From a virus (taxonomy: Duplodnaviria > Caudoviricetes), in the IMG/VR virus record IMGVR_UViG_3300047409_000205, positions 1-44,357 of that record: a stretch of 44,357 nt of DNA. One strand, 5' to 3'. Positions 10,500 to 44,179 of this stretch are shown piece after piece (position 1 is the stretch's first letter; each line of letters starts with the position of its first letter). Below the pieces are notes generated by a model. The model made no database searches. It was not told the origin of the DNA and saw only the letters and a program-made list of their open reading frames with translations. The position numbers and the translations under genes were made by a program.

Positions 10500-13400
10500 C
10501 TAAAATCCGCGCGGTTTACCGCTGCTCCGCTGAGTGGGCAAAACTTTGGTGCGCCGCGGCGGTCCTGGCTTTGGCGGATGCACGCCGGCGGCGCGCTCGA
10601 GCGCACGCATCTGGCCTTCTGGCGTTTCGTATTCCAGGCTCTGACTGATTCCGTGCCGGGCTTCGTATGTGGTGCGCGCCTTTTCCTGTGTCGCCTGGAT
10701 CTTGGCCTGCATCCCTTCGGCTCGGCGCACGATCGCGCTCTTCTCGAGGCCCGGCATCCATTCCGGCAGCCATTGCATAAGGCGATGCGGATTATATTTA
10801 AGCGCGGAATGCGTGGAGAACGCGGCACTTGATAGTATTAACGCCAGGTGCTCAGGGTTCTTGTCTTTCAGGTAAGCGGCAAATTGCTGCGGCATATTCC
10901 AGATTTGCGAGAGTCCCCAGAACATATTTACCACGCGCTCCATCTGCCCAGGATCGCCGTGTAAGGTTTTCATTAGATCCTGGATAGTGGACGGCGCTTG
11001 CCCGCCGCCGGGCCCGAACAGCAGGGTCGTAGCCGCCACACCGGGGATCGTGCGCGGGTCTTGAATCGCGGAAGCCAGGGGCGCGTCCACGTAATCAACC
11101 GGGAGATGTGTCCACCAGCCGTATTTGCGATAAAGGATCTCGCGCATGTATTCCACGGCGCCGATGAATAGCAGCGAGCGGAGAGGATGACTGCGCAGTT
11201 GTTTCGCAAGTGAAACGTAAGTGCCCAGCCGCCAGGTAGCGAAGAAGTTTAGCGGGATCCCGCGCCAGAAATTAAGCGCACCGGAGTTTTCATCGTATCG
11301 AATAAGATCAACCCATACGTGGTTCGCCGCGGCCTGATCGCTCATGCCTTTCTTAACGTAGGTTTTCCAGAGCGCATAGCGCAGCGCCGGATCCGCTTTG
11401 GCAAAGTTAAACCGTGCCGAGAAATGATTGCCGCTTAGAATTTTACCGGCTTTACTTAACATCCGCTCCAGATAAGTGCCGGCCTCGAGCGCCCGGAGCT
11501 GCGGCAGCCGCATACCGGTGGACGGCATGGGCATCACCGCTTCAAACCGTGCCTGCATCTGCGCGTTAGTCCCAAATTCGCGTGCGCTTTTCCGTAGCGT
11601 GTAATTACCTACCCGCGCCAGCGCATACTTGAAAGCCATATTCTTAGTGGCGTGCGGCAGCGGGTTATAGAGCAGGTTCGGGTTACGGGTGAAAGCGTTT
11701 GCTACGCGCACCAGTTTACCTACCGCGCCGGCGCTGCTGGTAGTGTTCAAGTTTTGCGCCAGGAATTGCGCTTCCACTCTGCTCCGGGCCCAGTAATCTT
11801 TCCCGCCGAATCCGCGGACCAGCGTCACCGGGCCGGCGCTTTTCTTTAACGTCCTGGCCGCGGCGATCGCGTCCGCCTTCTCATCGAAGAGCACGCCTTC
11901 ATCTTTCAGGCGCTTCAACATCCGGGCCGTGTTCTCCAGCCGGCCGGAGTAAAGCTCTCGCACGAACGCGGCCAGGGTAGGCGGCTCGTATTGCGTGCCG
12001 GCCTGGATCCCTTCTTTCATGGTGGCGTGGACCCGCGACTTATCGAAACTCCCGATCGATTGCCGGATGTGCCTGCCCCAGTTTGCAATCTGCGGGTGTA
12101 GATCCACCACGGCTTTCCCTTCCTCATTGGTAAGCCGCGCTATGTAAGGATCGCCGGTGTAAGCGGGTTCATCCACGCCGAGCACGCCGGCAGCCCAGCG
12201 CTCGGTAGGCACCCGGCCTTCCCTGTATTGGAAAAGCGCCTGCAAATCCGGCGGCGCCTGTGATACCGCCTGCGCCCAAGCGGCATCCCGCGGCGCGCCT
12301 TGCGCCAAGAGCCGGCGGTAAGTGGTGACGGCCGCGTGCTCGAGGTCCACGATCTCCTCCTCGGTCCGGCGCCGGAGCGCTTGCCACCATGGTTGTTTGG
12401 TAAAATTCTGAACGTAAGCGAGCTCGCGCTCCATTAGTTTCTGATGCTCGCTTATTACCGGGCTCTCCGGCACTTTGCGCACGATCTCATAGGACCGCGG
12501 CAGCATGTCCTGCCACCAGGCGAGCATCTTATTCGCGGAGCGCTTCGCCCAGATCGGCATGGGATTACTGCGTGGCGGCGTGTTCCCGGAGAACATGGAC
12601 GCGCCGGCCGGTCCGTAGGGCGGGCTCCCGCCGCCGTTACTCTCGTTTACTCGAGCCGTGCCGGTGACATACGGCATACTCGGCTTTTCAAACAGAGTCA
12701 TCTGCGCCTTTTCGGCGGCCTGTTGAGCGGCTACGCGCACCGCTTCGGCCGCATCAGCCTCGGCCTGGCGCGCGGCATAATCCACTACCTCTTCGCCGTT
12801 AAGATTAAATACGTCATTCTTCCCGGCTAACAGATCGCCCTGGGTAATGAGACGCGCTTCCAGGCGCGCGAGATCGCGTTTGCCGGCTCGGGTTAAGCTG
12901 GCTTTTTGGGCACGAAGGATTTGGAGCTTGGCGCTCTCCATTTCGGAGAGCGGCTGGAGCTGCGGGACTTGCGACGCACCCGATACACCGCCGGCTCCGG
13001 CCTCAGAAACATTACCGGAGAGTTGCCCAGTTGCTGTCCGTTGTAAGGGGCTGGTTCCTCCATAAGCTTCCGTAATATACCCTGTTTCATCCTGGGTCAA
13101 GCGGCGCACGCCATGCGTGCCGGCAGCCCGGACTGAATCCATCCCCGGCCATGAAGCATCCACGAATTTGGCGCCAATCACGTCGTGCACCATGTTTACC
13201 AGGCTTGTAATCACATTAGCCGGTGGCACTCTGGCAAAATCCAACAACACGCCATAGGCACTCTCGCGCGCTATCCCGTTAGAGACTGCCGCCTTTAGCG
13301 CGGCTAAATTAGTCCCCTGGCTCACGCGCTCCAGCGCTTTCAAATTCATCTGTGTGCCGGTGTAAAATATGTGCACCGCGTTAGGATCATCCGCGCGCAG

Positions 13401-16400
13401 CGTTACCGTAAAGTTCGCTAGATCCTCCGGGCTACGAATCGCCGGGCTTTCTTCCTGGCGCACCACTTCCCACGGTTGCAACACCGGGTTCGGTAGCGTG
13501 CCGTAGCCGTCGCCTGTCACCTCTTCCTGTTCAAAACTGAAATAATGTTTCCCGTTGGTTATTATGTGATCCGCTAGTTTCACGCCCACCGCGGCCGCAG
13601 CCTCATGCAATCGCCGTTGCACGTTTTTATCTGGATCGCTTGGGTCCGGTTTGCCGCTGGGATGATTATGCGAAACGATTATTTCCGCGTTCGGATGTTT
13701 CTCTTTTATCCTGGCAAAGAGCCGAAACACATCGCGCGGGTTCAGTAGTGCCTGGTCCAGTGTTCCTACGCTGGTAATCTCTGCGCCCAGCACACGTTTC
13801 GTCACCGGGTCGCGCGCCACCACCTTAAAGCTTTCAAAATCCGGGGAGCGGATAGGCCCGACCGCCATGGCGAAGTCCGCCGGTGTAGCGATTATCGAGC
13901 CTTCAATGTTCCACGCGGGAATCTGGTGGCTAATCAGATCGTGGATCACGATTGACAGCCGATTCTTATTCGCGCGCAGCGCCTCGGCTTTCAGTTTCCC
14001 TGGCACACCGTAAAACCCACCTTCATAAAACGCTTGGAGCGCCGGATCGCCGGCCAGCGCCAGTGTGTTTTTAATCTCTTCGGTGGCCTGCGCCTTGCGC
14101 GCCGGCGGCACCTTATTGAAATCCAGGAAAGTCTGTATATCCTCCGCCAGCTTTACCGTGTTCGCCGCCGGCACGGGGTTGCCTTCGCCGTAAGGGGCTG
14201 GGGTTGGTTCCTCAACGGGTCTAACTCCCGCCGGTTTGATTTGCTCGAGAGAGAAAGCTACAGAAACATCCGATTTAACACGGCTTCCAGGGTCGAGCGT
14301 GTCTATTACATTGCGCACTATCAATCCATCATGTCCGTGATCCTTCGCGTATTTCACCGCGTCACGTATGCTGACTGCATTCTTCGGCAAATTCCCGAAA
14401 ACCTTGGGTTTCCACTGCTGCCAGGGCACAGGAAGGTTGTCGTGTCTTGTTCCCATGGCATCAATAACCAGGGGATTTTTCAGGTCTAACGTCGCCGTGT
14501 GAACCGCCGGCGTTTCCGATTTCGACAGCCAAAGACCCCGGTGCTGAGTATAGGCACGCGCTAAATCAGGGTTACTGGTGAAGTAAATACCGCCTTCTGA
14601 TTGCTTAAACTGTTCAAATTTTCCAGCCGGAGTTCCGTGATACCACTGCTTCGCCGGGTCTGCATAGCCTCCCGTCCCCTCGCCCACGGCAGCAGTCTCT
14701 GGGACTTTGTAAACATAAACATTCCGTGAATCCGCGGACCGCCACGCCCATAATGAGCCGCCTGGCTCCCTTCTCATCGCTGGGTTGGTAGTTGTGGCCG
14801 CGTGCTCCACCGGCCAAGATTTCCAAACTGTTGGTTTAACTTTCCTCGTATCCTTTAGTGACAACGGCCTTGGTGCGTAAGGCGCAGCCCCCTCGCCCAC
14901 GGCCGCCGGCCCGTGCATGGCTTCGCCGGCTTCCGGTAGCGCCCAATGTTTTGTGCCGGTGCGGATCCGGTGGTCCAGCGCGTTTAGCAAATCGTCGGGT
15001 GTTTCAAAGTTAAACCCGCGGGCGCGCAATCGTAATACCAGGGGATCCACGCCCCCTGATTTACTGCTAAATATATCCCGGTAACGCACGCCTTTACTGC
15101 CGCGGATGGTTTCGCGCAGCATCTTAAGTTCGCCGCGGTAATGGTGGGCGTCCGGGTGGCCTTTAACCGGCAGCGCGCCTTCGTGCGTCACTGCTTCAAT
15201 TAACTCCATGCCGCCCTGGGCCCTGATCGCTTCTTCGCCTGCCGCTTCCATTTCCTTGCGTGCCTCATCCTGCGCGATCTTTTGCGCTTTGGTGAGCGGT
15301 TTGGCTTTCGGTGTTTTTGGCCTCACTGAATCAATCGGGATAAGATCATTCGGCGCGGGAAGTGTCGTCTTAACAAACGTGCGCGGCTTTCCGTCCGCGA
15401 ATTGGCTGCCTCCGACAGTCACCACCGGCTCCTGTGGCTGGCCGGTCAGTTTGTTTTGGCCCTTGAAAATTTTAGCAGTCAACCATTGTCCACTGGGCGA
15501 CTGGTATTCAATGGTATCGCCTGGTTGATATGCCGGCGGGCCCTCCTGATCCGGCAGCCCGCTAAAATCAATCGCGGGCATGTCGGTTGCCGGCGCGGTG
15601 GTAGCTGGTGGCTGCTGGCGCGCGGCCTCTATCGCCGGCATGGCGGCGGTGAGCTGGCTCCGGGTCATGGCATCGATCGCAGCCGGCTCGTGGCCCATGC
15701 TTGCGAGAGCTGCCTTTAGCGGGTCGGCGCTAAGGAACGGCACGCCGTGCCACGCGCTGCCGGCTTGTTCGCCAGGGGCAGGCGGCGGGAAAGCCGTGGA
15801 CTCCGGTGCGGCCGCAGGCGACACGCCTGCCGCTACAGTGGGTTGTCCTGTGGTGGCAGCCGTGCCGGCTACTGTTTCATCCGGTGCCGGTTGCAGCACC
15901 AGGTTAGCCGCTTGCCCTGGCGTAAGAGCGGCGATCGCTGCCGGGCTGTGACCGCGCGCGGCGAGCTCTTCGGTGATCGCCTCCGGCACCGCAACGGGCC
16001 CGGTAGCCACGGGTGCGGCAGGTGTCTCGGGCGCGGCCGCGGTTGGCTGTGTCGGTTGAGTTGCGGCCGGCTCCGGTGCCGCAGCGGTGGGCTGTGCCGT
16101 TGCCGGCTTAGGTGCCGCGCCACTTACCGGCTCCGTGTCGGTCCTTACTTTGTATTCGCCCTGCTGACGCTTGGCAACTTCCTCGGCAAACCGCCGCTGA
16201 AATTCGGCCGGATCGTTCTTAGCCAGCCAACTTAATTCTTCTTTAATGCTATTGAATTTGGGGCGCACCCCGGCCACGCCAGCTTCACCAGCAGCCGCTG
16301 CGGTCCCTGCTTCGCCAGCCGCCGCTCCCGCCTCGCCGGCCGCGGCTCCTCCCTCGGCGGCCACGAGTCCTGCCTTTGGGCCGCCCCCACGCATCCCGAG

Positions 16401-17621
16401 TCCGCCTGCCAGGAATCCAGCCGCTTCCACGCCCAGCGGCAGCACCGCGTCCCACCATTCCTGCGAGCCAACGTCATGTTTGCGCGCCTGCTCAAAAAGG
16501 TTGTATTCCGGTATGGTTGTGCGCGCCACTTCTTCCGCTGATTTGCCCTCCGCCGCAGCGGTCAGGCCTTTAATCTGTGCCAGCGCATACGAGCCCATTC
16601 CGGGGATCATTCGGGAAGCGATCTCTTCCGCTGTCGGCACGCGCAGCTCCGATTTTACCATGTTGGCAACGGCGCCGGCAGCCCTGTTCACTTGCTGACC
16701 CACCGGTGTTTTCACAAATTCTTCTACCAGCGCACGTTCATCGGCTCCCGGTCCCGTGACTGGTTGCTGCGGCAATACACCGGTTTCGGTAGGCGCGACC
16801 TGCCCGGGCGGCATATAGCTGGCGACACCCTCCGGCACTACTGCGGCAGCGTGCGCGAACGGTCCCTCCGGTGCAGCGATGGAAGCCGGCGCCACGCCTG
16901 TTGGCGCACCAGCATCCGGCAGCCCGCTCCAATCGATCGTCGGCGCCGGTGGCGCGTTCAACGTATCCGGGCCACCGGGTAACGGCGGCCGCGGCCCGTT
17001 CACCGGGTAGGCTCGAGCCACTTCGTGTTCTACTTCCTGAACCGGCACGGCTTTCTCTACGCGCGTGTAAGTATCCACCTGCTGCACCGGGGCGCCGCTT
17101 AGCGCTTGCTCATAGTTCTGCGCATACTGGTAACGTTTGCCCGCTATCCCGTAGCCCCAGTCCTTTGTCCCGCGAAATATCTTCAACGCCTCGGGCGCGC
17201 TCTCGGCGTTCTGCATGGCGTCCCACCGATCCGGGTGCTGCCGTTTAAACCGGTCCAGAATAAACGGCGCCTGATTGTAAGTGTATTCGGGATCTCCGGG
17301 GCTTATCCCTTTGCGCGCCTGGTCCTCGTTAAACTGCCGAAACATCGGCCCGCCCACCTGCATTAACCCAAAGGAAGTGCCGCGATCGCCGCTCATCGTG
17401 GGATGAAAATTGCTCTCCTGTTGTATGTCGCCCAGGAGCGCGGCCTGCACCTTCGGCGGCGCACCGTAATCCTGTAAGCTTTGTGTTACCAGATCCGCAT
17501 GGCTACCACCGCGCGGCCCGGTTTGCGCATCCGGCAGCCCGGAGAAATCAACGCCGGATCCACCGGCGCCAGCCTGGGTGTCGGGTAAACCGCTCCAATC
17601 GATCTCTGTGTTACTGGCCAC
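10500..17621 (-). CDS. Giant polyvalent DNA-ejection/internal virion protein: tail-lysozyme domain, ART-like domain, RadC/JAB domain plus degenerate copy, large helical C-terminus
   Basis: AALLGDIQQESNF..GDRGTSFGLMQ (~17.1-17.5 kb); WYHGT..GIYFTSNPDLARAY..LKNPL..GHDGLIVRNV..EQIK (~14.23-14.65 kb); GTLDQALLNPRDVF..HNHPSGKPDPSDPD..LADHII (~13.5-13.9 kb); last gene of the virion operon. Confidence 0.88.
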   Translation of the reverse strand: MASNTEIDWSGLPDTQAGAGGSGVDFSGLPDAQTGPRGGSHADLVTQSLQDYGAPPKVQAALLGDIQQESNFHPTMSGDRGTSFGLMQVGGPMFRQFNEDQARKGISPGDPEYTYNQAPFILDRFKRQHPDRWDAMQNAESAPEALKIFRGTKDWGYGIAGKRYQYAQNYEQALSGAPVQQVDTYTRVEKAVPVQEVEHEVARAYPVNGPRPPLPGGPDTLNAPPAPTIDWSGLPDAGAPTGVAPASIAAPEGPFAHAAAVVPEGVASYMPPGQVAPTETGVLPQQPVTGPGADERALVEEFVKTPVGQQVNRAAGAVANMVKSELRVPTAEEIASRMIPGMGSYALAQIKGLTAAAEGKSAEEVARTTIPEYNLFEQARKHDVGSQEWWDAVLPLGVEAAGFLAGGLGMRGGGPKAGLVAAEGGAAAGEAGAAAGEAGTAAAAGEAGVAGVRPKFNSIKEELSWLAKNDPAEFQRRFAEEVAKRQQGEYKVRTDTEPVSGAAPKPATAQPTAAAPEPAATQPTQPTAAAPETPAAPVATGPVAVPEAITEELAARGHSPAAIAALTPGQAANLVLQPAPDETVAGTAATTGQPTVAAGVSPAAAPESTAFPPPAPGEQAGSAWHGVPFLSADPLKAALASMGHEPAAIDAMTRSQLTAAMPAIEAARQQPPATTAPATDMPAIDFSGLPDQEGPPAYQPGDTIEYQSPSGQWLTAKIFKGQNKLTGQPQEPVVTVGGSQFADGKPRTFVKTTLPAPNDLIPIDSVRPKTPKAKPLTKAQKIAQDEARKEMEAAGEEAIRAQGGMELIEAVTHEGALPVKGHPDAHHYRGELKMLRETIRGSKGVRYRDIFSSKSGGVDPLVLRLRARGFNFETPDDLLNALDHRIRTGTKHWALPEAGEAMHGPAAVGEGAAPYAPRPLSLKDTRKVKPTVWKSWPVEHAATTTNPAMRREPGGSLWAWRSADSRNVYVYKVPETAAVGEGTGGYADPAKQWYHGTPAGKFEQFKQSEGGIYFTSNPDLARAYTQHRGLWLSKSETPAVHTATLDLKNPLVIDAMGTRHDNLPVPWQQWKPKVFGNLPKNAVSIRDAVKYAKDHGHDGLIVRNVIDTLDPGSRVKSDVSVAFSLEQIKPAGVRPVEEPTPAPYGEGNPVPAANTVKLAEDIQTFLDFNKVPPARKAQATEEIKNTLALAGDPALQAFYEGGFYGVPGKLKAEALRANKNRLSIVIHDLISHQIPAWNIEGSIIATPADFAMAVGPIRSPDFESFKVVARDPVTKRVLGAEITSVGTLDQALLNPRDVFRLFARIKEKHPNAEIIVSHNHPSGKPDPSDPDKNVQRRLHEAAAAVGVKLADHIITNGKHYFSFEQEEVTGDGYGTLPNPVLQPWEVVRQEESPAIRSPEDLANFTVTLRADDPNAVHIFYTGTQMNLKALERVSQGTNLAALKAAVSNGIARESAYGVLLDFARVPPANVITSLVNMVHDVIGAKFVDASWPGMDSVRAAGTHGVRRLTQDETGYITEAYGGTSPLQRTATGQLSGNVSEAGAGGVSGASQVPQLQPLSEMESAKLQILRAQKASLTRAGKRDLARLEARLITQGDLLAGKNDVFNLNGEEVVDYAARQAEADAAEAVRVAAQQAAEKAQMTLFEKPSMPYVTGTARVNESNGGGSPPYGPAGASMFSGNTPPRSNPMPIWAKRSANKMLAWWQDMLPRSYEIVRKVPESPVISEHQKLMERELAYVQNFTKQPWWQALRRRTEEEIVDLEHAAVTTYRRLLAQGAPRDAAWAQAVSQAPPDLQALFQYREGRVPTERWAAGVLGVDEPAYTGDPYIARLTNEEGKAVVDLHPQIANWGRHIRQSIGSFDKSRVHATMKEGIQAGTQYEPPTLAAFVRELYSGRLENTARMLKRLKDEGVLFDEKADAIAAARTLKKSAGPVTLVRGFGGKDYWARSRVEAQFLAQNLNTTSSAGAVGKLVRVANAFTRNPNLLYNPLPHATKNMAFKYALARVGNYTLRKSAREFGTNAQMQARFEAVMPMPSTGMRLPQLRALEAGTYLERMLSKAGKILSGNHFSARFNFAKADPALRYALWKTYVKKGMSDQAAANHVWVDLIRYDENSGALNFWRGIPLNFFATWRLGTYVSLAKQLRSHPLRSLLFIGAVEYMREILYRKYGWWTHLPVDYVDAPLASAIQDPRTIPGVAATTLLFGPGGGQAPSTIQDLMKTLHGDPGQMERVVNMFWGLSQIWNMPQQFAAYLKDKNPEHLALILSSAAFSTHSALKYNPHRLMQWLPEWMPGLEKSAIVRRAEGMQAKIQATQEKARTTYEARHGISQSLEYETPEGQMRALERAAGVHPPKPGPPRRTKVLPTQRSSGKPRGF
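15814..15872. repeat. Inverted doublet of GTAG-type REP-like palindromes inside the giant gene
   Basis: GCAGGCG-ACA-CGCCTGC-CGCTACAG (15814-15838) facing CTGTGGTG-GCAGCCG-TGC-CGGCTAC (15848-15872). Confidence 0.7.
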
Positions 17622-18486
17622 CGCTTAGTTGCTGGAGCACGTATTGAATGTTGCCCGGGGTTAGCGGCTTCCCGTTTTGTTGCAGGATGGAAATGGCACG
17701 CGCCTGGTTTGGATCCTGTCCCGCGGCCGCGGGACCACCAGCCGCACCAGCACCCGCCGCGCCGCCAACACCGCCCGTCTGGCCAGGCACAAACCCGCTC
17801 ATGTTAAGCTGGCGCTTGTAAATCTCGTGCTCCACTTTCGGCATGGTTACACCGGTGGGCCCGCCTATGCGGATCTGGTCGCCGGCCGGATCGTTCTTAA
17901 ACGTCTTGGCGCCGGTGGTCGGATCGGTCGCCACCGTGCCAGCTTCGTGCTGGCTTGAATCGAATATCTGCTCGGGCACCAGCCCGTAAGCTTGCTTTAT
18001 GTAACCTGCCGGCGATCGCCGCTTGGCCGCATCGGCCTGGGCCGGGGTAGCCCAGCCACCCAGTTCATCGCTCCATATCCTCCCCTTTGGCGCTCCGCTG
18101 CCGCCGCCCGCGGCATCGGCTTGCGCCTTCTGCGCTTCCGCCTGGTAATAATTCGTGTGCGCAAGGCTCTCCCTGTTCGCGTAGCCGAGCTTCTGCAAGG
18201 CATCTGTGAGGTGCATTCCGGCCTGCATACCGCCGGCAACGAAAGCGCGTTGCCGCATACTGTGGTTCTGGTAATCCTCTAAAGCTTGCTTGTCGATGAT
18301 CGGCTTGCCCGAGATGGGATCGTTCTGTTGGCTCAGGTATTTCATCAGCGCATCGGACTGCGTGGTTTGATCCGCGATCTGCGCATATTGATTGATCGCG
18401 CCGGTGATTCCCTGCGCTGCGTTGGTGATTCCTTGGAATAAATAATCGCCTCCTTTGTAACTGCTCGGGCTAACTGTGAATGGCAT
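17611..18486 (-). CDS. Internal virion / ejection protein
   Basis: Ala/Gly/Gln-rich, 291 aa, immediately upstream of and overlapping the giant ejection gene. Confidence 0.7.
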   Translation of the reverse strand: MPFTVSPSSYKGGDYLFQGITNAAQGITGAINQYAQIADQTTQSDALMKYLSQQNDPISGKPIIDKQALEDYQNHSMRQRAFVAGGMQAGMHLTDALQKLGYANRESLAHTNYYQAEAQKAQADAAGGGSGAPKGRIWSDELGGWATPAQADAAKRRSPAGYIKQAYGLVPEQIFDSSQHEAGTVATDPTTGAKTFKNDPAGDQIRIGGPTGVTMPKVEHEIYKRQLNMSGFVPGQTGGVGGAAGAGAAGGPAAAGQDPNQARAISILQQNGKPLTPGNIQYVLQQLSGGQ

Positions 18487-19354
18487 TTTCTGGTTCCTCC
18501 TCTTTCTCTGTAGTGGCAGGCGTGTCGCCTGCTTCGATGTAATCAGGTAAAATCTCCATGCGCATAACGGTGGGCCCCATGTTGCGCACCAGGCAGTTGC
18601 CCTTTGGGCAATGCACGGTCTTGGAATCCACGCGCGGATCTATGCAGGCCGTGCAAGCGTGCACGTAATCGGGGTTCAACCATTTGTCCCATACCTCGGC
18701 GCGCTTAAAGTAGCGGCGCGCATCGTATGGGATCGCGTTCTGCGCGGTGTAATCCCACACATCATCATCAGTCCAATGCCGCAACGGAAATACCGCATCG
18801 ATGCCGGCGGTGTGGACACGATCTGCCTTAAGCGGCACCGGCCCTTCGTATGGATCCACGTCGCTGTTTTTGTGGCCGATAAACACCGTGCTCCACGGCC
18901 ATTGTGCGCCCAGGGTTTTCGGGCGGGTAAGCCATTGCAAGCCACACACAAACGGCCGGCGCTCGATCGGCGGCTCGGTATTCATCGGCACATCGATCGC
19001 GCCATTGCCTACCTGGTAGCGCGTGACGAGCTCGAGCCTAGCCGCGTGAGACTCGTCTTTTACGCGGCATTTCACGCCGCACGCCAGCGGCGGAAACTCG
19101 TAAACCTCCAGCGCCATCGATCGGATCACGCCCTCGGCAAACTCGTGCTTGGCCGGGAAGTAAGGGTGCCTGTGATAGATCACCGGGAGCGGATAGGAAT
19201 GACAATTCAAGTCCCGCCGCGGCAACACCTGCCGGATCAAATCCAGGAGCACCATGCTATCTTTTCCAAAGCTGCAAAGGAGCACAGCCTGGCCGGCGCC
19301 CCACTCATAGATGAGGTGCTTCGCGTGCGCGATTTTGTCCTCGAGCGTTGTCAT
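18470..19354 (-). CDS. PAPS reductase-family (PP-loop adenine nucleotide alpha hydrolase) protein
   Basis: LLCSFGKDSMVLLDL PP-motif, IGHKNSD, VFPLRHWTDDDVWDY, C-terminal CTAC...CPK cysteines. Confidence 0.85.
   Translation of the reverse strand: MTTLEDKIAHAKHLIYEWGAGQAVLLCSFGKDSMVLLDLIRQVLPRRDLNCHSYPLPVIYHRHPYFPAKHEFAEGVIRSMALEVYEFPPLACGVKCRVKDESHAARLELVTRYQVGNGAIDVPMNTEPPIERRPFVCGLQWLTRPKTLGAQWPWSTVFIGHKNSDVDPYEGPVPLKADRVHTAGIDAVFPLRHWTDDDVWDYTAQNAIPYDARRYFKRAEVWDKWLNPDYVHACTACIDPRVDSKTVHCPKGNCLVRNMGPTVMRMEILPDYIEAGDTPATTEKEEEPENAIHS
18508..18532. repeat. Single GTAG-type REP-like palindrome in 3' end of the PAPS-reductase-like gene
   Basis: CTGTAGTGGCAGGCGTGTCGCCTGC; its reverse complement matches 15814-15838 at 24/25 positions. 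Confidence 0.75.
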
Positions 19355-20460
19355 AAGGCCGCCAATAGTCCGCCACCGATAGCGCCGGCTGCGCCTATAC
19401 CTGCGCCGGTTAAGCCGCCGCTCTTGTTACTCGCCGCGATGTTTTGGGTAGCCGCGGCGTTCTGGTTTGCGTCAAAGAGGTTCTGCCCAAAGTTAAGCAG
19501 CGATTGCGTCCCTGGCTGGGTAGTGCCAAGCCCCGCCTGCATGGCCGCGTAACTCGAGCCGGGTGCGCCGTATGCCGCGAGGTTCGGCGCTTGCGCGTAA
19601 CCGGCATAATTCGGCGGTGTCACCGCGCCGCCCAGCGATTGCAAGGCGCTTTGATCCATCGCTTGCGTGCTTAGCCCGAATTGTTGCGCCTGATTAAGAG
19701 CGCCTTGCCGTGCGCCCTGCGTGCCCAGCCCGAATTGTTGCGCCTGGCCCAGTTGCGATTGGGCCAGGCCCAGCGCGCCCTGGCGTTGTCCTTCCACGTT
19801 GCCCGCAAACTGTTGCGCTTCCTGCATACGCTTGCGCACCAGCGCGTCCCGGTCCAGGAACGATTGCGCCTCGGCCTGGTTAAACACGTTGTTGCGCCCG
19901 GCAAATCCGCCGAGTGTCCCTTGCGTCTGCTGGTAAGCTTCCTGATTAGTAAGATGCCCGCCCTGTGCGAGCTGGGTTTGCGCCTGGCTGGTAAGGTTGC
20001 CTAGTAACGAATCCACGCCGCCGCCGGCCAGGTTGGTATAGGCATTCTTCAAGCCGGCTTGCGATACATTGCTAAGGTTTTGGAGATACGGCGTTGAACC
20101 TCCACGCGCAAGCCCGCCCGCCGCCTGCTGGTTCATGGAATTAAGAAGCGGCGAGCCGGCAATCGCCTGCTGCATGTTGGCGAGATTCAAGCCCAGATAT
20201 TGCGGCGAGAGCTCGTTGGCAATGTTAAACCCCTGCTGCGCGTATTGCGGCCCGAATTGTTTAGTAAGATCCAGCCCGAGCTGCGCGTATTGCGGCGCAT
20301 TTAACTTGCTCTGGTTTATGTCCTGCTGGGCAAACTTCGGCCCGTATTCGCTTGAGAGATCAAATTGGCTTTTGGTAAACTGCGGCAAATAATGCAGAAT
20401 GTCGCCCAGCTCGTTGCCCAGGCTTTGTTGTGGAATGCTTGGTGCTCCTCCTCCGCCCAT
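19351..20460 (-). CDS. Internal virion / DNA-transfer (pilot-like) protein
   Basis: MGGGGAP start, Gln/Gly/Ala-rich with AQQFG repeats, hydrophobic Gly-rich C-terminus GAAGAIGGGLLAAL; AAGGA SD. Confidence 0.75.
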   Translation of the reverse strand: MGGGGAPSIPQQSLGNELGDILHYLPQFTKSQFDLSSEYGPKFAQQDINQSKLNAPQYAQLGLDLTKQFGPQYAQQGFNIANELSPQYLGLNLANMQQAIAGSPLLNSMNQQAAGGLARGGSTPYLQNLSNVSQAGLKNAYTNLAGGGVDSLLGNLTSQAQTQLAQGGHLTNQEAYQQTQGTLGGFAGRNNVFNQAEAQSFLDRDALVRKRMQEAQQFAGNVEGQRQGALGLAQSQLGQAQQFGLGTQGARQGALNQAQQFGLSTQAMDQSALQSLGGAVTPPNYAGYAQAPNLAAYGAPGSSYAAMQAGLGTTQPGTQSLLNFGQNLFDANQNAAATQNIAASNKSGGLTGAGIGAAGAIGGGLLAAL

Positions 20461-20478
20461 AATGTTATCCTTTCTTTC

Positions 20479-20793
20479 TTAGCCGCTGTATCCCAGCATC
20501 TGTAAAATTTGTGCTAACTTCTGCTGATCGATCCCCCCGGCGCCGACCTGCTGCGCAAATAACGGGCCTGTCGCGCCGGTGCCCGGGCCCGTCTGTTGTT
20601 GTGGCTGGCCATAGGTTCCCGCTGCGGGCGCCTGTGCCACCTGGCCGGATAAACCGGAATTGGCTCCCGCCACGCTTGCGCCGGCCCTTTGGAAACCTTG
20701 CGACAAGCTGTTGCCGAGATCCTTGTATGTTTGTTGTTGCTGGTATTGCTGCCAGCTATCCTGTGCCGGGTTACTTTGTTCGCCGCCGCCCAT
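20479..20793 (-). CDS. Small internal virion-like protein
   Basis: MGGGEQ start, Gln/Gly-rich, AGGAG SD. Confidence 0.65.
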   Translation of the reverse strand: MGGGEQSNPAQDSWQQYQQQQTYKDLGNSLSQGFQRAGASVAGANSGLSGQVAQAPAAGTYGQPQQQTGPGTGATGPLFAQQVGAGGIDQQKLAQILQMLGYSG

Positions 20794-21160
20794 ATAATTT
20801 TTCTCCTTTTAATATCTCTAACATTCTGTCAAACGAATAACTGCGAATCCGCAGGTCGCCTTTCTTCCCTCTGCATAAACAAATTTCCGGTAACGGATAA
20901 GGCAGCGCGCTCATTAGCACGTCCAGCGGTCCTACCGACATGCGCACAAACCACGCCGGCTGTTTCGTGCGCGGTCCCTCTATCACCCGGGCCATGCCGA
21001 AACAGTCCGGCCTGGAGATCACGCACCCGTGCGCCAGGTAAAACGCCACGTCCTCTTCAAAGGAAGTATCCGGCATCCATTCCCGGTAACAGGCAGCCGC
21101 GTGCTGTATGGCTGTGGGCCCCAGGCTTACCGGCTTTAACATTTGCTCTCCGGTTATCAT
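20771..21160 (-). CDS. Putative T7 gp13-like / GNAT-like virion assembly protein
   Basis: 129 aa; sits between nozzle and ejection genes where podoviruses carry such a gene; SFEEDVAFYLAHGCVISRPDCFGMAR...AWFV pattern. Fold is inferred from position only. Confidence 0.45.
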   Translation of the reverse strand: MITGEQMLKPVSLGPTAIQHAAACYREWMPDTSFEEDVAFYLAHGCVISRPDCFGMARVIEGPRTKQPAWFVRMSVGPLDVLMSALPYPLPEICLCRGKKGDLRIRSYSFDRMLEILKGEKLYGRRRTK

Positions 21161-21249
21161 AGCTTCCGGTCAATGCTCCGTAACGACAACACGATTGAGA
21201 CAAGCGCCACCAGGTAGAGGATGTGAATGATAAAGTTAGCCGTTGTCAT
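21157..21249 (-). CDS. 30-aa single-TM peptide MTTANFIIHILYLVALVSIVLSLRSIDRKL (not in ORF track)
   Basis: Exactly fills the gap with ATGA overlaps at both ends; hydrophobic stretch then basic tail. Confidence 0.65.
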   Translation of the reverse strand: MTTANFIIHILYLVALVSIVLSLRSIDRKL

Positions 21250-23009
21250 GCCGCCGTTTTCGTTTCCATGGTGCTCGCTGTCGCTTCCACGCCCGCGGCC
21301 AGCACATCGCACACCCCGCTCAGGTTCTCGATGCGCAGGCTTACCCAGCGCGCGTTTACCCGCACACTGAAAGGTTCTCTGCTTTCCTGGCGCGGACCGA
21401 TTGCGGCCTGCGCGCTGGGCGGTATCAGCCCCACCGGCCCCACCGGCACCAGCTCGTAATCTTCGCCCGCAAAATCATCCGTCTCATTAGCCAGGCTGTA
21501 ATCCTCGCGCTTGGGCTCCAGCGGGTCGCCGGCTATCGGATCAAAATCCGCGTGGCCGTGCGGATAAAATCTAAGGCGATCCTTGGTAAGCGGCTCCGTG
21601 GTAAGCGCCTTTACCTCGTTTACTCCGTCACTGATCGCGCTTATTTCGATGAGGGGATTACTGGTGCGCAAATTCACCACCGCGCGCGAGTAACGTTTAA
21701 AAGCCCTGTTATCACCGCACGTGTAGCCCCGGGTTTCAATTACATCGGAAATGGGCAGCCGTTGATCGTTTGTTTCATCGAACCCTTCCTGCTGGTAAAG
21801 CGCGTAGATTTTCTGGTTAAAATAATCCAGGCCAAATAGCGCGCGGCCGTCCTGATACTTTGTCACGTGCAGCGCGTGGATGACAAAGCCAGGATCGCTC
21901 CACCTGTCCGGCACGCTTTCCCATTCGCCGTTTATCAGGTTCAACACCAGGATGGCGTTGTTACCCAGCACGGCCTGGTCCAGTGGCACGGCAAAATAAC
22001 CGTATTCGCCCAGGGCCGCGGCGGTAGCCCAAATGGATGCCAGGCCCCACTGGATCCGGTCGATCACCGGTTGTATGCGCTCGCTTACCGGCAACGGCTC
22101 AGCCGCCACCTGGTCCTGGATCACTTCGTTCAGTTTATAGATGCCCCCCGGTTCACTTAGAAACGCCACGTCGCGCCCCCATTCCAGCACGCATTTGGTT
22201 GCGCATAGCCCGATCCGTTTCGATAGCTGCCGCTCAGTCATAAGCGTAGGATCGCTGGTAAAGTTCGCAGCCTGATGGATGCTCCGGCGTTTGAACACCA
22301 CCACGCTGCTTTGGAAGTATGGCCAGATCCGCACAATCCAATCGCTCTCGCCGGCGTTCACGTTAAAGGTAGCCAGCGCCGGATCGTAGCCGGCATACTG
22401 CAAAATGTCCGACATGATAAACTGGTAACTCCACGGCAGCGCGGGGAATTGCGCGTTGTAATAAAGCACCCGGCTTTGGAACGGTTCGCCGTGCCACGCG
22501 GCCGGGATAACCGAGAACGCACCGGGCGGCGCTACCACCGGGTCAAACGTGTGGCCCACTGTTCCGTCCCATTCCAGCGGCGTGCTTGCGCCACTCGGCC
22601 GGCGCAGGAGTAGCACCTTATCGAACGCCTGCACAAATTCCACGGCTGCAAATCCGGCCAGCGTTTGACCCGCGTGCAGGTTCACCTTAAAAGCATCTTT
22701 CCCGTATTGTAGCGCCCACACATAAGTGGCGCCCAGCTCTGCGACCAGCATCACTTCGTCCCCGTTCGGGTTAGAATAAATGCCCGAGCCGATGAACGTG
22801 TTAATGAACGGCGCCTGAAAATCCGGCACCTGCACATTGCCCAGGCGCGTCGTCGCGGCGCCGATGCGCAGCCGCTTATTCTCCGAGCGCGCCAGCGTCC
22901 CGGGTTGCAGTAACGCCCGGTCCCGTGTCATATCCACGCCCGTAAAAGCGTTGTCACCATCCTCCACCACGCGGGAATCCAGCCTGCCGTATGCGCTCCA
23001 GCGGCTCAT
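21246..23009 (-). CDS. Tail nozzle / tubular protein B (P22 gp10 / T7 gp12-like)
   Basis: 587 aa beta-rich; FTGVD..L.PG.L..SEN.R, VVVFKRRSIH, IGLCA, PVSERIQPVIDRI, YFAVP, IETRGY; position before ejection genes. Confidence 0.75.
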   Translation of the reverse strand: MSRWSAYGRLDSRVVEDGDNAFTGVDMTRDRALLQPGTLARSENKRLRIGAATTRLGNVQVPDFQAPFINTFIGSGIYSNPNGDEVMLVAELGATYVWALQYGKDAFKVNLHAGQTLAGFAAVEFVQAFDKVLLLRRPSGASTPLEWDGTVGHTFDPVVAPPGAFSVIPAAWHGEPFQSRVLYYNAQFPALPWSYQFIMSDILQYAGYDPALATFNVNAGESDWIVRIWPYFQSSVVVFKRRSIHQAANFTSDPTLMTERQLSKRIGLCATKCVLEWGRDVAFLSEPGGIYKLNEVIQDQVAAEPLPVSERIQPVIDRIQWGLASIWATAAALGEYGYFAVPLDQAVLGNNAILVLNLINGEWESVPDRWSDPGFVIHALHVTKYQDGRALFGLDYFNQKIYALYQQEGFDETNDQRLPISDVIETRGYTCGDNRAFKRYSRAVVNLRTSNPLIEISAISDGVNEVKALTTEPLTKDRLRFYPHGHADFDPIAGDPLEPKREDYSLANETDDFAGEDYELVPVGPVGLIPPSAQAAIGPRQESREPFSVRVNARWVSLRIENLSGVCDVLAAGVEATASTMETKTAA

Positions 23010-25206: not shown

Positions 25207-25371
25207 TTATGTTCTGCTCCCAAAGAGGGCGGTGCCCAGTGAGCAACCGCCGTTGTTTAATTGCCCATCAAACGTGATCGTGCCTTCGATCGGGCCTATC
25301 GGCACCAGCTCGTAGCCTTGCAAAGCGTAAGCCTCATTGCTCCCGAAAAATCCTCTTAAAAGTCTAACCAT
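25207..25371 (-). CDS. 54-aa protein MVRLLRGFFGSNEAYALQGYELVPIGPIEG...
   Basis: TAATG coupling to the methylase stop; shares YELVPxGPx with the nozzle protein. Confidence 0.6.
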   Translation of the reverse strand: MVRLLRGFFGSNEAYALQGYELVPIGPIEGTITFDGQLNNGGCSLGTALFGSRT

Positions 25372-25988
25372 TATGTTACCAGCTCCAGTTGCTCGGCCAC
25401 CGGGACCGGGTTGGTCCATTGATCTGCCATAGCCTCGGCAATTCCGGCGTATGTTTTGGCGCGCAGTTTCGCTCTGTTTGGTGAAGGTCCGAGTTTGTTC
25501 TGGCCGGATGGCGTCTGATTCTCCCAGCGGCCGCTCGGTGGCAGCGGAAGAATCTTTGTCGGTCGCAGGCACGGCAAACCTTTAAGCCATAAACATGTCG
25601 TCTTGCTTTCGGGATGACCATATTGCCACGGGTGAATTATCTGGTCCGGTTCCTGATAAACAGATGACATGATGCAGACTGGATTTTCCACGCAGATTTT
25701 CCGAATTGGCGCCCTGACAAACGCCATAAAGAAATCGATCGCCTCCTGCTGCACACCAGTCTCCCGCTTCTTTTTAAAGAGGTGGGCGCCGCTAACTGCA
25801 AGGTGTGTGCACGGCGGGTGCGCAATTAGCAAATCCCAGTCCTCGTGCAGATGATTCAACGCATCATCTTGAATATGGTTTCCGGGGCGCTCGGTTGGCA
25901 GAAGATCACAACTCCACACGTCATGCCCAAGCACCGCAAACGCATCCCTCACCGCTCCGCTGTATTCGCACGCCACTAAAATTCTCAT
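25371..25988 (-). CDS. Short phage DNA (cytosine-5) methyltransferase-like protein
   Basis: MRILVACEYSG (motif I variant), WSCD, DLLIAHPPC (catalytic PC), ENPV, KTTCLWLKGLP, RAKTYAGIAEAMADQW. Confidence 0.85.
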   Translation of the reverse strand: MRILVACEYSGAVRDAFAVLGHDVWSCDLLPTERPGNHIQDDALNHLHEDWDLLIAHPPCTHLAVSGAHLFKKKRETGVQQEAIDFFMAFVRAPIRKICVENPVCIMSSVYQEPDQIIHPWQYGHPESKTTCLWLKGLPCLRPTKILPLPPSGRWENQTPSGQNKLGPSPNRAKLRAKTYAGIAEAMADQWTNPVPVAEQLELVT

Positions 25989-28153: not shown

Positions 28154-29671
28154 TTAGCTTCCTCCCGCTGCCGCCGGTGTTTTCGCCCGGGTGCGATACC
28201 GCGGCGCCGGCCGTTGCTGGTCTGTGAGCGCGTCGTATGCCGGCGTGTTGGCTTTGTTTAAACGGTCGCCTACCTCCGCCACCGCTCCTTGCTCTTCCGC
28301 CATTGCCTTATCCGTCTGCCCCGCTTCGCGCAGTGCATCGCTGTAAGCCCCTCGCGTCACCGGCTCCATGAGCGCGTAAGGAAACAGCACGCGCGACCAG
28401 TAAGTAGAATTTTCCGGGCTCATTTGCGCGTCGGTGCTTACCCCGCCCATGCTGGCGATCTGGAGCGTGCCCAGCGTGGGATTCACGCTCACGCTAATCC
28501 TGGCAAACCACGGGTCGGCAGCCCCGTTTATGGCAGAGGCAAGGCCGTCCAGGATTTGAGTAAGCCCTTCCCCGGCCTCGGAGTAATAGCTCACCGTGTG
28601 CACGGCATCGTCGTCCGGGTCACGGAAACTCAGCGTGTAAGTGGTGCATCCCTTTACCTGGCTCTGCGAGATTGTTACCTGCGTGATCTGCGGCAAACCC
28701 GGGCTGGGCGGGATAGCGGCAAAATAGGTTTGCACCTGCACCCGCCTGTTAGCGTGCCTGGGGGTGCTTATCGGCGGGCCCTGATACCAGTTAAAAAGTT
28801 GAAAATCCGAGTTATGCTCAATCCGTATTTTCTTATCTGCCGGTGTAGCTGTGATGGTAAACCCGGCCATGCCCGGCGCCGCGGTGAGCAAAGCCGCCAG
28901 GCCGTTCACGATCTCGGTATAGCCATCGCCGCCCGCCACGGTATAACTTACGTCCCCGTGCGTTACCACTCCCGCCTGGTCCTTTACAGTTAGCTTGTAA
29001 ACCCAGCCAGCAGGCGGCGGCGCCGGGACCGTCGGCACGTCCGCTGTCGTCTGCGGATAGGCGTATGCGTCTATAATCTCAGTTTGCTCGGCCTTCCCCG
29101 GATCCGGCGGCACCGCGGCTTGTGTGATCTGAGTGGAAAGCGGCGCGGTAAACCCTATCACCGGATCGTTCCCCAGGTTGCCGGAGATCAGGCTCAAGTA
29201 ACATTCGCCGGTTATCGGGCTATAAGTAACATCCCCGCCTGCGTAACTCCGGCTGGCATCCCATTTCACCGAAGTAAACTTCGGCGCCTGCGGAAGATAT
29301 TTAATCCACACCGTCACTCCGTGATCGAATCCCACGTGCAACCCTTCGTCCCATTCACGAAACCGCGCGTCGATCGGGTAAGGCGACACCCGTGGATCCA
29401 CCAGGTAAACTTTAAGCGGGCGCGAAAGCTGCACCGGCTGAGGTGCGCCCAGCGGAAACGCGCGCCACGGCACCATGTGATTTACGGCCGGCGCAAATTC
29501 TTTGATAGCAGTCCACTCCGGGAAATCCTGCGCGTCCCATGTCCGGCGCACCCAGGCGTTAATGTAACTGCAAAGCGATTCCCCTTCGTCCACGAGAAAC
29601 TCCTGGGCCGGATCCAGCCCCAGTTTATAGGCGATCGACCACAGCACTTCTTTAAATGGGATCGTTCTCAT
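28154..29671 (-). CDS. Head-tail adaptor / tubular protein A-like protein, paralogue 2, with inserted beta domains
   Basis: MRTIPFKEVL..LGLDP..YINAWVRRTW..DFPEWT; WDASRSYAGGDVTY (CBM-like); C-terminal FPYAL..RGAYSDALR. Confidence 0.65.
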   Translation of the reverse strand: MRTIPFKEVLWSIAYKLGLDPAQEFLVDEGESLCSYINAWVRRTWDAQDFPEWTAIKEFAPAVNHMVPWRAFPLGAPQPVQLSRPLKVYLVDPRVSPYPIDARFREWDEGLHVGFDHGVTVWIKYLPQAPKFTSVKWDASRSYAGGDVTYSPITGECYLSLISGNLGNDPVIGFTAPLSTQITQAAVPPDPGKAEQTEIIDAYAYPQTTADVPTVPAPPPAGWVYKLTVKDQAGVVTHGDVSYTVAGGDGYTEIVNGLAALLTAAPGMAGFTITATPADKKIRIEHNSDFQLFNWYQGPPISTPRHANRRVQVQTYFAAIPPSPGLPQITQVTISQSQVKGCTTYTLSFRDPDDDAVHTVSYYSEAGEGLTQILDGLASAINGAADPWFARISVSVNPTLGTLQIASMGGVSTDAQMSPENSTYWSRVLFPYALMEPVTRGAYSDALREAGQTDKAMAEEQGAVAEVGDRLNKANTPAYDALTDQQRPAPRYRTRAKTPAAAGGS

Positions 29672-43772: not shown

Positions 43773-44179
43773 AACTGCGGACGCACGATTGCCACCATTG
43801 TGCCGTCAGTAGGACTGCGTTTATTCTGCGCTTCTCCATTCACAAAATGCACCCGGCGACGAAACAATCTTATTTCCGCTCCGCGGTCTTTAAGTCTGTG
43901 ATACCACGCCGTATCAGTCCGGGCGGGCAATACAAACACGACAACTTCCGCAGGTGATGAAAATGCTTTATCCACCCACGGCGTTATGTCTGACCACGGC
44001 GGGTTAAGGAACACTCTGCGGCGCGCCCAATCGCTTTGCAGCCCATCCATTTCCAAAGTCGGATGCGGATTGAACGGGCACGGATCAAAATCAAATCCAA
44101 ACTCGCTATCCAGCGCGTCGTATAAATACCTCGGCGTAGCGTAGCTGTTGTTCCCCGTCCATTTTAGCGGTGCACTCAT
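43769..44179 (-). CDS. dam: Phage DNA N6-adenine methyltransferase (phage Dam family)
   Basis: YATP..LYDALDSEFGFDFDPC, DGLQSDW, VFLNPPW, LPARTDTAWYH, RRVHF. Target sequence unknown. Confidence 0.88.
   Translation of the reverse strand: MSAPLKWTGNNSYATPRYLYDALDSEFGFDFDPCPFNPHPTLEMDGLQSDWARRRVFLNPPWSDITPWVDKAFSSPAEVVVFVLPARTDTAWYHRLKDRGAEIRLFRRRVHFVNGEAQNKRSPTDGTMVAIVRPQL

Follow-up and report, generated by a model that had tools for sequence, protein, structure and literature searches.

In the virus record IMGVR_UViG_3300047409_000205, whose 44,357 bases were all analysed here (the window), a PP-loop enzyme lies beside a likely ejection protein with a free Gly/Ala-rich hydrophobic C-terminus, and in related phages the enzyme and three unrelated domains fused at the same point of that same protein show near-complete mutual exclusion. 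Since sister phages have predicted self-cutting domains on the tail of its partner in its stead, the enzyme is likely to be an ATP-driven tail-capping enzyme and not one of sulfur assimilation. A covalent cap would bear on how short-tailed phages drive their ejection proteins into the host envelope; our literature search found no paper describing one on these proteins.

The record is rated 100% complete and represents a temperate podophage, with the cluster on the minus strand throughout, from 23009 down to 10500 (Table 1). The genes, overlaps and motifs of the first-pass annotation were found in the record as described. The enzyme gene, the only PF01507 gene present, shares 4 nt with the gene upstream and 17 nt with the one downstream. 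Role labels for the 587-aa and 369-aa proteins are Atlas leads and not assignments, pointing to PF11134 (P22 gp10-like, 17% of a cluster) and PF25688 P22_gp7 (13% of a cluster, 155 shared features), respectively. The position of the 369-aa gene matches that of P22 gene 7; the protein did not match P22 gp7 directly (hhalign 0.8%) and gave a weak profile match with the JC1 virion protein gp64 (probability 29%, E 6e-4). The 104-aa MGGGE protein does not generally belong to the module. The gene arrangement recurs far beyond chance, in 76 representatives below 70% identity, which agrees with the earlier claim that the enzyme is linked to the ejection cluster, with two homologues lying outside that context.

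Table 1. Features of the enzyme locus, in window coordinates.
Feature	Coordinates	Strand	Basis or remark
587-aa protein, likely tail nozzle (P22 gp10 position)	21246..23009	-	anchor for control survey
30-aa hydrophobic peptide, begins MTTANFIIHILYLVALV	21157..21249	-	seen only in closest relative L203
129-aa putative degenerate GNAT-fold protein	20771..21160	-	tracks partner's N-terminus, independent of enzyme
104-aa MGGGE protein, ends GYSG	20479..20793	-	seen only in closest relatives
369-aa Gly/Ala/Gln-rich MGGGG protein (P22 gp7 position), likely ejection protein, predicted substrate	19351..20460	-	synteny, alignment, Atlas lead PF25688
Free Gly/Ala-rich hydrophobic C-terminal tail of 369-aa protein, ends GGLLAAL, predicted modification site	19354..19413	-	
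PP-loop enzyme, 294 aa, CysD/FAD-synthetase/APS-reductase fold, predicted C-terminal activating ligase	18470..19354	-	
PP-loop motif SFGKDS, residues 28-33	19256..19273	-	S28, G30, K31, D32, S33 each 96-98% in 136 distant homologues
Predicted metal or Fe-S site, C137, C234, C237, C249	18608..18946	-	conserved 100%, 99%, 99%, 99% in 136 distant homologues
291-aa protein (gp20 position), likely ejection protein	17611..18486	-	position; no family match in domain scan
2373-aa giant protein, likely gp16/DarB-like ejected polyvalent protein	10500..17621	-	Phage_lysozyme2, ART-PolyVal, RadC/JAB domains (Pfam scan)

The upstream partner satisfied a tail rule, defined after the data had been seen and with start codons called in the present analysis, in 65/72 representatives that have an upstream gene, against a background of 5/759 other genes; three of the seven failures were near-miss Gly/Ala tails. 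Where partner and enzyme genes are directly adjacent, 34/55 pairs overlap by 1 or 4 nt. Complete partners start with MG in 28/54 cases and with MGGG in 5/54, so the constant feature is the free Gly/Ala-rich hydrophobic C-terminus and not an N-terminal Gly. Maturation of an ejection protein, as the first-pass annotation had suggested, is likely; N-terminal Gly runs as its target are not supported.

For the control we used loci anchored on the nozzle gene, of which 87 were decided; most of these are nearly identical copies belonging to three clades, and the discovery set overlaps with 16 of those 40 that have the enzyme. The partner tail was free in 40/40 loci with the enzyme and in 0/47 without it. 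Among the latter, 42/47 had a domain of the Peptidase_S74, Hint or CFI-box-CTERM-like type joined to the partner at the tail point: S74 in 14 (above the Pfam cut-off in 5/5 tested), Hint in 9 (E 9e-5, below cut-off) and a CWVAR domain in 19 (CFI-box-CTERM E 3e-4 to 0.03, below cut-off). The remaining five had no such domain and all ended in Gly. An exception to the exclusion is L110, where a CWVAR domain and the enzyme occur together. The nozzle tree implied 18 state changes, and independent pairs agreed in 8/8 cases (p=0.008), and between loci in different states, identity reached 92% in partner bodies and 99% in nozzles. In 6/7 sister pairs the DNA homology ended 34-112 nt before the stop of the partner, and in three of these it resumed just after the enzyme. 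Tail tip and enzyme move as one cassette, so part of their link is physical. The residue preceding the S74 Ser was F, L, W or A in 17/17, and the free ends in enzyme loci were F, I, L or Y in 40/40. Among isolates, PAE2 orf13 carries S74 at the tail point and HMO-2011 gp25 carries CWVAR, its position being less clearly equivalent.

We propose that, in the producer cell, the enzyme probably adenylates the tail carboxylate of its partner and passes it on to a nucleophile. Carboxylate adenylation is established chemistry for PP-loop enzymes, and the thioester formed at Cys1 of Hint domains is open to nucleophile attack, as in Hedgehog-type ligation. A CFI-box-CTERM domain may cleave itself, judging from its leading Cys; our literature search found no paper on such self-cleavage. 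S74 cuts before its own Ser via a Ser-Lys dyad (PMC8326128). These three domains act in cis and without ATP, in contrast with the window enzyme, which is predicted to be a separate ATP-using protein. Each of the four routes would activate the acyl group of one and the same hydrophobic residue, in which case the job would be capping the end and not trimming alone. The enzyme would use ATP to adenylate the terminal carboxyl and hand the activated tail to the nucleophile, with capping in the infected cell, ahead of virion completion. Given this mechanism, our leading guess for the nucleophile would be an amine (a small amine, a polyamine, an amino-lipid, or a Lys or the N-terminus of another subunit); sulfide supplied via an Fe-S site, with LarE/TtuA as precedent, would be a minority guess, and an alcohol or other nucleophile a still weaker one. 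SET or class-I methyltransferases, where present, would go on to methylate the product, and the cap would remove a negative charge or add an anchor, by which the tail could enter the envelope of the next host. P22 gp7, which has a free hydrophobic tail, binds procapsids via residues 21-154 (PMC8402733), which would leave the tail free for a later job. If the proposal is true, the enzyme is a ligase dedicated to a C-terminus, for which three self-processing domains can stand in, and a new use of the CysD/CysH fold, it offers a handle on the uncharacterised CFI-box-CTERM domain, and an ATP-driven enzyme modifying a short hydrophobic C-terminal tag is a possible protein-labelling tool.

The shared need of the tail could be folding and not capping, since S74 cleavage is known only as chaperone release and hydrolysis would leave a plain carboxylate. 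S74 drives tailspike trimerisation and is then released by self-cleavage (PMC8326128). The enzyme might similarly use ATP as a chaperone or short-lived activator of the hydrophobic end, keeping it covered or bringing it into oligomers, and leave no lasting cap. This reading explains the same mutual exclusion, and P22 gp7 functions with its tail free although no enzyme is encoded between genes 7 and 20, so a free tail need not always require the enzyme. We nevertheless regard it as improbable, because the 136 distant homologues hardly vary in their catalytic residues or in the four Cys and because methyltransferases lie beside the enzyme or are fused to it (SET in 14/76 and class-I in 4/76 representatives; 4/40 control loci with the enzyme vs 0/47 without), which fits a product to be methylated. 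Fusions of the enzyme with SET (P0147 and P0168) and with S74 (P0125) also speak for the capping proposal, as do those with a GNAT-slot homologue described below.

The enzyme could otherwise be a mobile extra in a recombination slot, co-ejected or expressed late, that modifies DNA, RNA or nucleotides in the manner of DndC, BrxP or tRNA thiolases. Its presence is patchy among near-identical phages, its Cys set resembles that of Fe-S sulfur transferases, and there is a weak BrxP match (E 9e-4) confined to the PP-loop (23 residues of 779). Two homologues without a tail partner stand in other contexts, L128 and, in a bacterial MAG next to an SSS transporter and a methyltransferase, L160; both nest inside the enzyme clade, so the family can serve other substrates. 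However, a hitch-hiker would predict neither the free tails beside the enzyme nor the self-processing domains in its absence, and the enzyme scored 12 bits against the DndC model (cut-off 290). As the first-pass annotation had noted, no other cys, dnd or ssp families were found among the 52 ORFs scanned, and a brx partner and cysN are likewise absent from the genome. Co-injection of the enzyme, also raised there, is disfavoured: JC1 virions contained the partner gp64, while the distantly related enzyme gp65 and the acetyltransferase gp63 are not among the proteins listed (PMC9144972). We consider this reading, too, to have a small chance of being correct.

Returning to the capping proposal, a biochemical parallel concerns the other end of the partner. 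Cap9 (type IV CBASS) and QatC are PP-loop enzymes of the QueC branch with a defence role, which adenylate a carboxylate and form an amide on a partner encoded alongside; they join a nucleobase carboxylate to a protein amine, in contrast with the protein carboxylate predicted here. For Cap9, amide formation at the N-terminal Gly of a GGSGG peptide is reported (bioRxiv 2025.04.06.647259), and by analogy the window enzyme might ligate an acyl group or nucleobase to an N-terminal Gly run, or close the partner head to tail. Both MGGG proteins of the window and fusions of the enzyme to a homologue of L129's GNAT-slot gene (P0225, E 7e-17; P0253, E 1e-10) are in keeping with this. It is quite unlikely, though, as 26/54 partners lack an MG start, MA-, MP- and MR-starting partners occur, and Cap9/QueC rank low in the fold comparison (Z 7.6-8.0 vs 15.3 for CysD). 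Cap9 itself matched at E 0.23 by profile and Z 7.6 by fold, as a related superfamily and not the nearest, and the domain scan gave no QueC Pfam match. Moreover, the N-terminal Gly tracks the GNAT-like gene rather than the enzyme: the GNAT-like gene was present with MG (63), MK (8) and MS (4) partners and absent with MA (6), MC (2) and MP (9), it occurred in 36/40 loci with the enzyme vs 34/47 without, and the enzyme is also paired with MA- and MP-starting partners where this gene is missing. In the model of the 129-aa protein, all top 50 fold matches were GNAT-fold chains (best Z 6.8, rmsd 4.6, 99 aligned), with no Foldseek match at E 0.001 and no Pfam GNAT match. This neighbour would likely acylate the opposite end of the partner, independently. 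A wider version of our proposal, in which both ends are capped Hedgehog-style, by the GNAT at the N-terminus and with a lipid or amine at the C-terminus via four convergent machines, is tentative and on balance doubtful. If true, S74 and CFI-box-CTERM are acyl-transfer domains, breaching the host envelope requires a new class of virion-protein modification, and a share of viral 'cysH' genes is to be reassigned from metabolism to virion morphogenesis.

The enzyme is a member of the PAPS_reduct superfamily (PF01507, 40.3 bits, cut-off 22.5), and its structure model (pLDDT 92) has CysD as the closest solved fold (Z 15.3, rmsd 3.0, 162 aligned), with CysD, FAD synthetase and CysH all at Z 12-15. 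It has in common with these the fold, the PP-loop and a P-L-x-x-W-x-x-x-D-V/I-W motif, but is far under their family cut-offs, lacks the reductase motifs, is tied to a virion gene and has its own C-terminal Cys subdomain and beta insertion. That region (C234-T-A-C237, C249-P-K), earlier proposed to bind metal or Fe-S, is likely such a predicted site, with C137 needed as fourth Cys. The single Cys at 137, CxxC at 234 and extra Cys at 249 differ from the CC...CxxC Fe-S motif of APS reductase, which is absent. NCBIfam models gave 15-28 bits for CysH (cut-offs 154-254) and 26-31 bits for CysD (cut-offs 195-413). The ECGxH redox motif, present in 4/4 cellular CysH rows, was found in 0/269 proteins examined, and the CC and G-x-R-R/K-E-R-x-x-S-x-R motifs of the cellular rows are absent. 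In a tree drawn without DndC, BrxP and SspD, the family fell apart from CysH and CysD as a separate clade with support 100. On sequence grounds, the enzyme is thus a PP-loop clade of its own, below every CysH, CysD and DndC cut-off, in line with the previous view that it is not a metabolic auxiliary gene. A role in sulfate assimilation, with CysH/CysD activity, is the published reading for JC1 and CSP3 (PMC9144972, PMC10269572) and agrees with the PF01507 match and the CysD-like fold, but it is hardly credible here given 25-31 bits against CysH/CysD cut-offs of 154-413, the missing motifs, the separate clade and a genome without cysN or another cys gene.

The system, which the first-pass annotation had called new, is so only in part, because Bcep22-like phages (Lessievirus) have a late cassette already annotated in the same order, nozzle, GNAT, tailed virion protein, enzyme and ejection genes, as far as the giant protein. 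In JC1 these include gp63 (N-acetyltransferase), gp64 (virion protein) and gp65 ('PAPS reductase'), and CSP3 orf39/orf41 are counterpart genes; in the accessible parts of PMC9144972 and PMC10269572, they are described as moron sulfate-reduction genes, with no link to the neighbour proposed. The Bcep22-like partner has the same free Gly/Ala-rich hydrophobic tail, and the enzyme has the PP-loop and no ECGxH; the Cys pattern is CC...CxxC in the JC1 type vs C...CxxC...CP in the window family, and the two fall in separate clades, each with support 100. A gp65-like gene was found in 43 phage records, and the window enzyme had no match among 50,697 phage records. The family of the window enzyme comprises 173 clusters at 50% identity (E <=1e-30), and many members carry the name 'PAPS reductase/FAD synthetase' in source databases; counts of auxiliary metabolic genes may therefore include it, viral 'cysH' being listed as an unvalidated sulfur gene of that kind (PMC12713726). 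The Bcep22-type clade also lies beside free tails, in JC1 (gp64), phiA008 (partner starting MR) and MW202711.

The 44,357-base record was rated 100% complete, and an integrase, an SU10-type capsid protein and a terminase are all encoded in it. The gene order, overlaps and motifs reported in the first-pass annotation, running from a nozzle gene to a giant-protein gene around an SFGKDS enzyme, were found as described, all on the minus strand. As that annotation had also stated, no other sulfur or dnd/ssp genes were found among the 52 ORFs scanned, and the sole gene matching PF01507 was that of the enzyme. The cluster follows the order of genes 10-14-7-20-16 in P22 and of gp61-gp69 in phage JC1. 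The labels of single genes are leads, taken from Atlas PF11134 for the 587-aa nozzle, from Atlas PF25688 for the 369-aa MGGGG ejection protein upstream of the enzyme (the partner, in the position of P22 gp7), and, for the 129-aa protein, from GNAT-fold rows whose Z does not exceed 6.8. The nozzle profile gave 0 matches among PDB sequences and 1% against JC1 gp61, the 129-aa profile gave 0.2% against P22 gp14, and 0 of 20 members matched when the partner alignment was compared with PHROGs. The 104-aa and 30-aa genes were rejected as parts of the module, being present in the closest relatives only. The giant protein is likely a polyvalent anti-host protein that is ejected.

Locations of the features discussed, in the window and in loci of relatives (L numbers)
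Feature	Location	Strand	Remarks
Enzyme, 294 aa	window 19354-18470	minus	4 nt shared with the 369-aa MGGGG gene, 17 nt with the 291-aa gene
Giant protein	window 10500-17621	minus	Phage_lysozyme2 (51-150), ART-PolyVal (992-1131), RadC-like JAB (1263-1366)
MGGGE protein	window 20479-20793	minus	ends YSG
ArdC-like anti-restriction protein	window 4721-5641	plus	ArdcN + MPTase-PolyVal
DNA methyltransferase-like gene	window 25371-25988	minus	
DNA methyltransferase-like gene	window 43769-44179	minus	
Look-alike protein	window 28154-29671	minus	starts MRT..F..V
Look-alike protein	window 34554-35921	minus	starts MRT..F..V
SAM decarboxylase or CxxCxxCC gene	L117:335-667		
SAM decarboxylase or CxxCxxCC gene	L131:2800-3123		
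Enzyme-family member and neighbors	L160:2226-6702		bacterial MAG
Minimal Hint domain	L274:7078-7533		~132 aa
CWVAR-starting domain	L218:7298-7555		
HMO-2011 gp25	L376:3102-5222		CWVAR-starting domain

We counted 211 homologues of the enzyme among 572 candidates, and the family comprised 173 clusters at E of at most 1e-30 in a 50% library. The enzyme model (pLDDT 92) was nearest to CysD (Z 15.3), FAD synthase (14.7) and APS reductase (14.4), with QueC (8.0) and Cap9 (7.6) ranked lower. Conservation across 136 distant homologues is 96-98% for the PP-loop residues and 99-100% for C137, C234, C237 and C249. Fe-S sulfur insertion is known from TtuA and LarE. The ECGxH motif was present in 0 of 269 homologous proteins examined, and scores against CysH, CysD and DndC lay far under the cut-offs. 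In a tree of 53 rows, with DndC and FAD synthetase left out, all 27 rows of the enzyme family formed one clade (SH-aLRT 100) separate from CysD, CysH and the three Bcep22-type rows, the deeper branching order lacking resolution. Because of this fold, motif conservation, lack of ECGxH, low scoring and separate clade, the enzyme is predicted to act as PP-loop enzymes that adenylate do, and it is neither CysH nor CysD, which upholds the earlier proposal that it does not serve sulfate assimilation. In cultured phages, tblastn found no match to this clade with the window enzyme and one weak 38-residue match with the enzyme of L131. Among distant homologues, the enzyme occurs fused to SET (P0147, P0168) and to a homologue of the GNAT-slot protein (P0225, P0253). 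In other homologues, an intein is inserted directly behind the SFGKD motif (P0170), TPR and GT9 domains are fused (P0233), or an S74 domain lies at the enzyme's own C-terminus (P0125), perhaps as the scar of an insertion at the tail junction.

For the neighborhood survey, 200 loci were fetched, of which 145, plus the window, scored >85 bits and were reduced to 76 representatives at <70% identity; in four the contig held no upstream gene, so that 72 were scored. The upstream protein had a Gly/Ala-rich, uncharged, hydrophobic end, hereafter the free tail, in 65 of the 72, compared with 5 of 759 other complete genes, by a rule fixed after the tails had been seen. The seven failures were three near-miss tails (L096, L102, L113), a partner with a CWVAR extension, CWVAR being a CFI-box-CTERM-like domain (L110), a poor gene call (L138) and two other genomic contexts (L128, L160). 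The enzyme directly adjoins the tailed partner in 55 representatives, overlapping it by 1 or 4 nt in 34, and a small gene lies between them in 10, one being a split-off piece of the enzyme. Accessory genes among the 76 were SET (14), class-I methyltransferase (4), CxxCxxCC (4) and SAM decarboxylase (2), with Pfam confirmation for subsets. The last two kinds occupy a slot beside the enzyme in L117, L131, L126, L129 and L162, and the SAM decarboxylase hints at a polyamine co-substrate. In L160 the enzyme-family member is flanked by genes for a channel-like protein, an SSS transporter and a methyltransferase, and L128 holds a second member outside a virion context.

The first-pass annotation had placed the enzyme's action at oligo-Gly N-termini. 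Among the 54 partners with complete 5' ends, for which we called the start codons ourselves, 28 start with MG, 16 with MGG and 5 with MGGG; therefore, oligo-Gly is not a constant feature. It was rejected as the enzyme's signal, as the starts vary and the N-terminal type tracks the GNAT-like gene. When this gene was scored in the 92 nozzle-anchored loci described below, it was present with partners starting MG (63), MK (8) or MS (4) and absent with those starting MA (6), MC (2) or MP (9). It occurred in 36 of 40 enzyme loci versus 34 of 47 enzyme-less loci, and it is a module separate from the enzyme, which is itself optional. Aeromonas phage phiA008 has an MGGGG protein without the tail, and its tailed protein, which precedes the enzyme, starts MR. 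The feature noted in the first-pass annotation is real, and the reading given there is partly supported. In L218 and L226, partners starting Met-Cys are preceded by a different gene of 119-125 aa, suggesting that the type of acyltransferase follows the partner's first residue.

So as not to select on the enzyme, control loci were gathered through homology of their nozzle genes, from three clades that supplied 15 loci, the best 80 of 550 and the best 80 of 309, respectively. Both a nozzle and a full-length partner were present in 92 of the 175, the other 83, mostly too short, being left out; five of the 92 were undecided because the contig end was reached. The free tail was found in 40 of 40 loci with the enzyme, of which 16 are shared with the discovery set. 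Without the enzyme, the partner carried a CWVAR domain in 19 loci, Peptidase_S74 in 14, Hint in 9 and neither enzyme nor domain in 5, where S74 was above the Pfam cut-off in 5 of 5 tested and the Hint and CFI-box-CTERM matches were under it. These counts include ten rows relabeled by hand after inspection and many near-copies, and loci bearing the enzyme had supplied the nozzle seeds. Presence or absence of the enzyme changed 18 times across a FastTree of 86 nozzles, and in independent pairs on starred branches the enzyme went with the free tail in 8 of 8 (p=0.008); scored for absence of a domain, the same pairs gave a mean of 7.3 of 8 (median p=0.016). DNA homology between sister pairs stops 34-112 nt ahead of the partner stop in 6 of 7 and restarts directly after the enzyme in 3; therefore, what is exchanged is the tail tip together with the enzyme or with a domain. 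Predicted S74 cleavage would leave F, L, W or A as the last residue in 17 of 17, which we liken to the free ends in enzyme loci (F, I, L or Y in 40 of 40); ahead of the cysteines of CWVAR and Hint the residue varies more and is often G or K. The minimal Hint domain of L274 and eight sister loci ends V-N-S followed by ~10 residues, which resembles an intein junction and could serve to splice a new, short tail to the partner. The CWVAR-starting domain, related to CFI-box-CTERM, is also present in a cultured phage, HMO-2011.

We consider it fairly probable that the enzyme caps the partner at its C-terminus. The enzyme would use ATP to adenylate the partner's final residue; this acyl-adenylate would correspond to the ester or thioester expected from the in-cis domains, and the activated end would then be capped by a nucleophile. 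Hint domains use thioester chemistry, as in Hedgehog cholesterol transfer. An amine is our first choice of nucleophile because of the PP-loop amide-synthetase precedent, the SET partners and fusions, and the SAM decarboxylase neighbors. Cap9 uses ATP to activate a carboxylate, which it then joins to a protein N-terminus as an amide (bioRxiv 2025.04.06.647259), and S74/ICA domains cleave themselves by a Ser-Lys dyad upon trimerisation (PMC8326128). If S74 simply hydrolyses, as it may, the need it shares with the enzyme could be chaperoning, which we regard as quite improbable. Several observations count against capping: P22 gp7 has a free hydrophobic tail, yet no such enzyme gene accompanies it; five control loci have neither enzyme nor domain and L110 has both; and the enzymes of L128 and L160 have no tailed partner nearby. 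In P22, gp7 is among the ejected proteins; the KGGKG N-terminus of its mature fragment can be read, and its residues 21-154 mediate binding to the procapsid (PMC8402733). The distant enzymes that carry a fused homologue of the GNAT-slot gene fit a scheme of two enzymes acting on the two ends of one protein; that convergent machines cap ejection proteins at both ends is a tentative and rather unlikely extension of C-terminal capping.

In Bcep22-like phages the cassette layout is already published, read there as sulfate-reduction moron genes (PMC9144972; PMC10269572), the Bcep22-type enzyme gene is carried by 43 records, and one table lists viral cysH as an AMG lacking validation (PMC12713726). 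In the parts of PMC9144972 that report JC1 virions, including Table 6, gp64 is detected and gp63 and gp65 are not listed. Among the full-text papers searched, few of them from subscription journals, we found none connecting such an enzyme with the C-terminus of an ejection protein or with S74, Hint or CFI-box domains, and the main text of PMC10386132 lacks GNAT, PAPS, S74 and gp7. Contributed here are a second clade of the enzyme, distinct in its Cys pattern, the three interchangeable domains with mapped cassette ends, and the enzyme fusions.

The MGGGE protein and its counterparts in L203 and L204 (YGG in both) have ubiquitin-like small-residue ends, and Gly is also final in the five control partners with neither enzyme nor domain; that a host ThiF/E1-like activator acts on such Gly-ended proteins is a conjectural idea. 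Elsewhere in the window, the ArdC-like gene lies in a short block of plus-strand genes next to the integrase region, and the first of the two DNA methyltransferase-like genes lies within the structural module, directly after the likely portal gene. The two look-alike proteins have similar C-terminal helices and no family matches, and are possibly duplicated tail adaptors.
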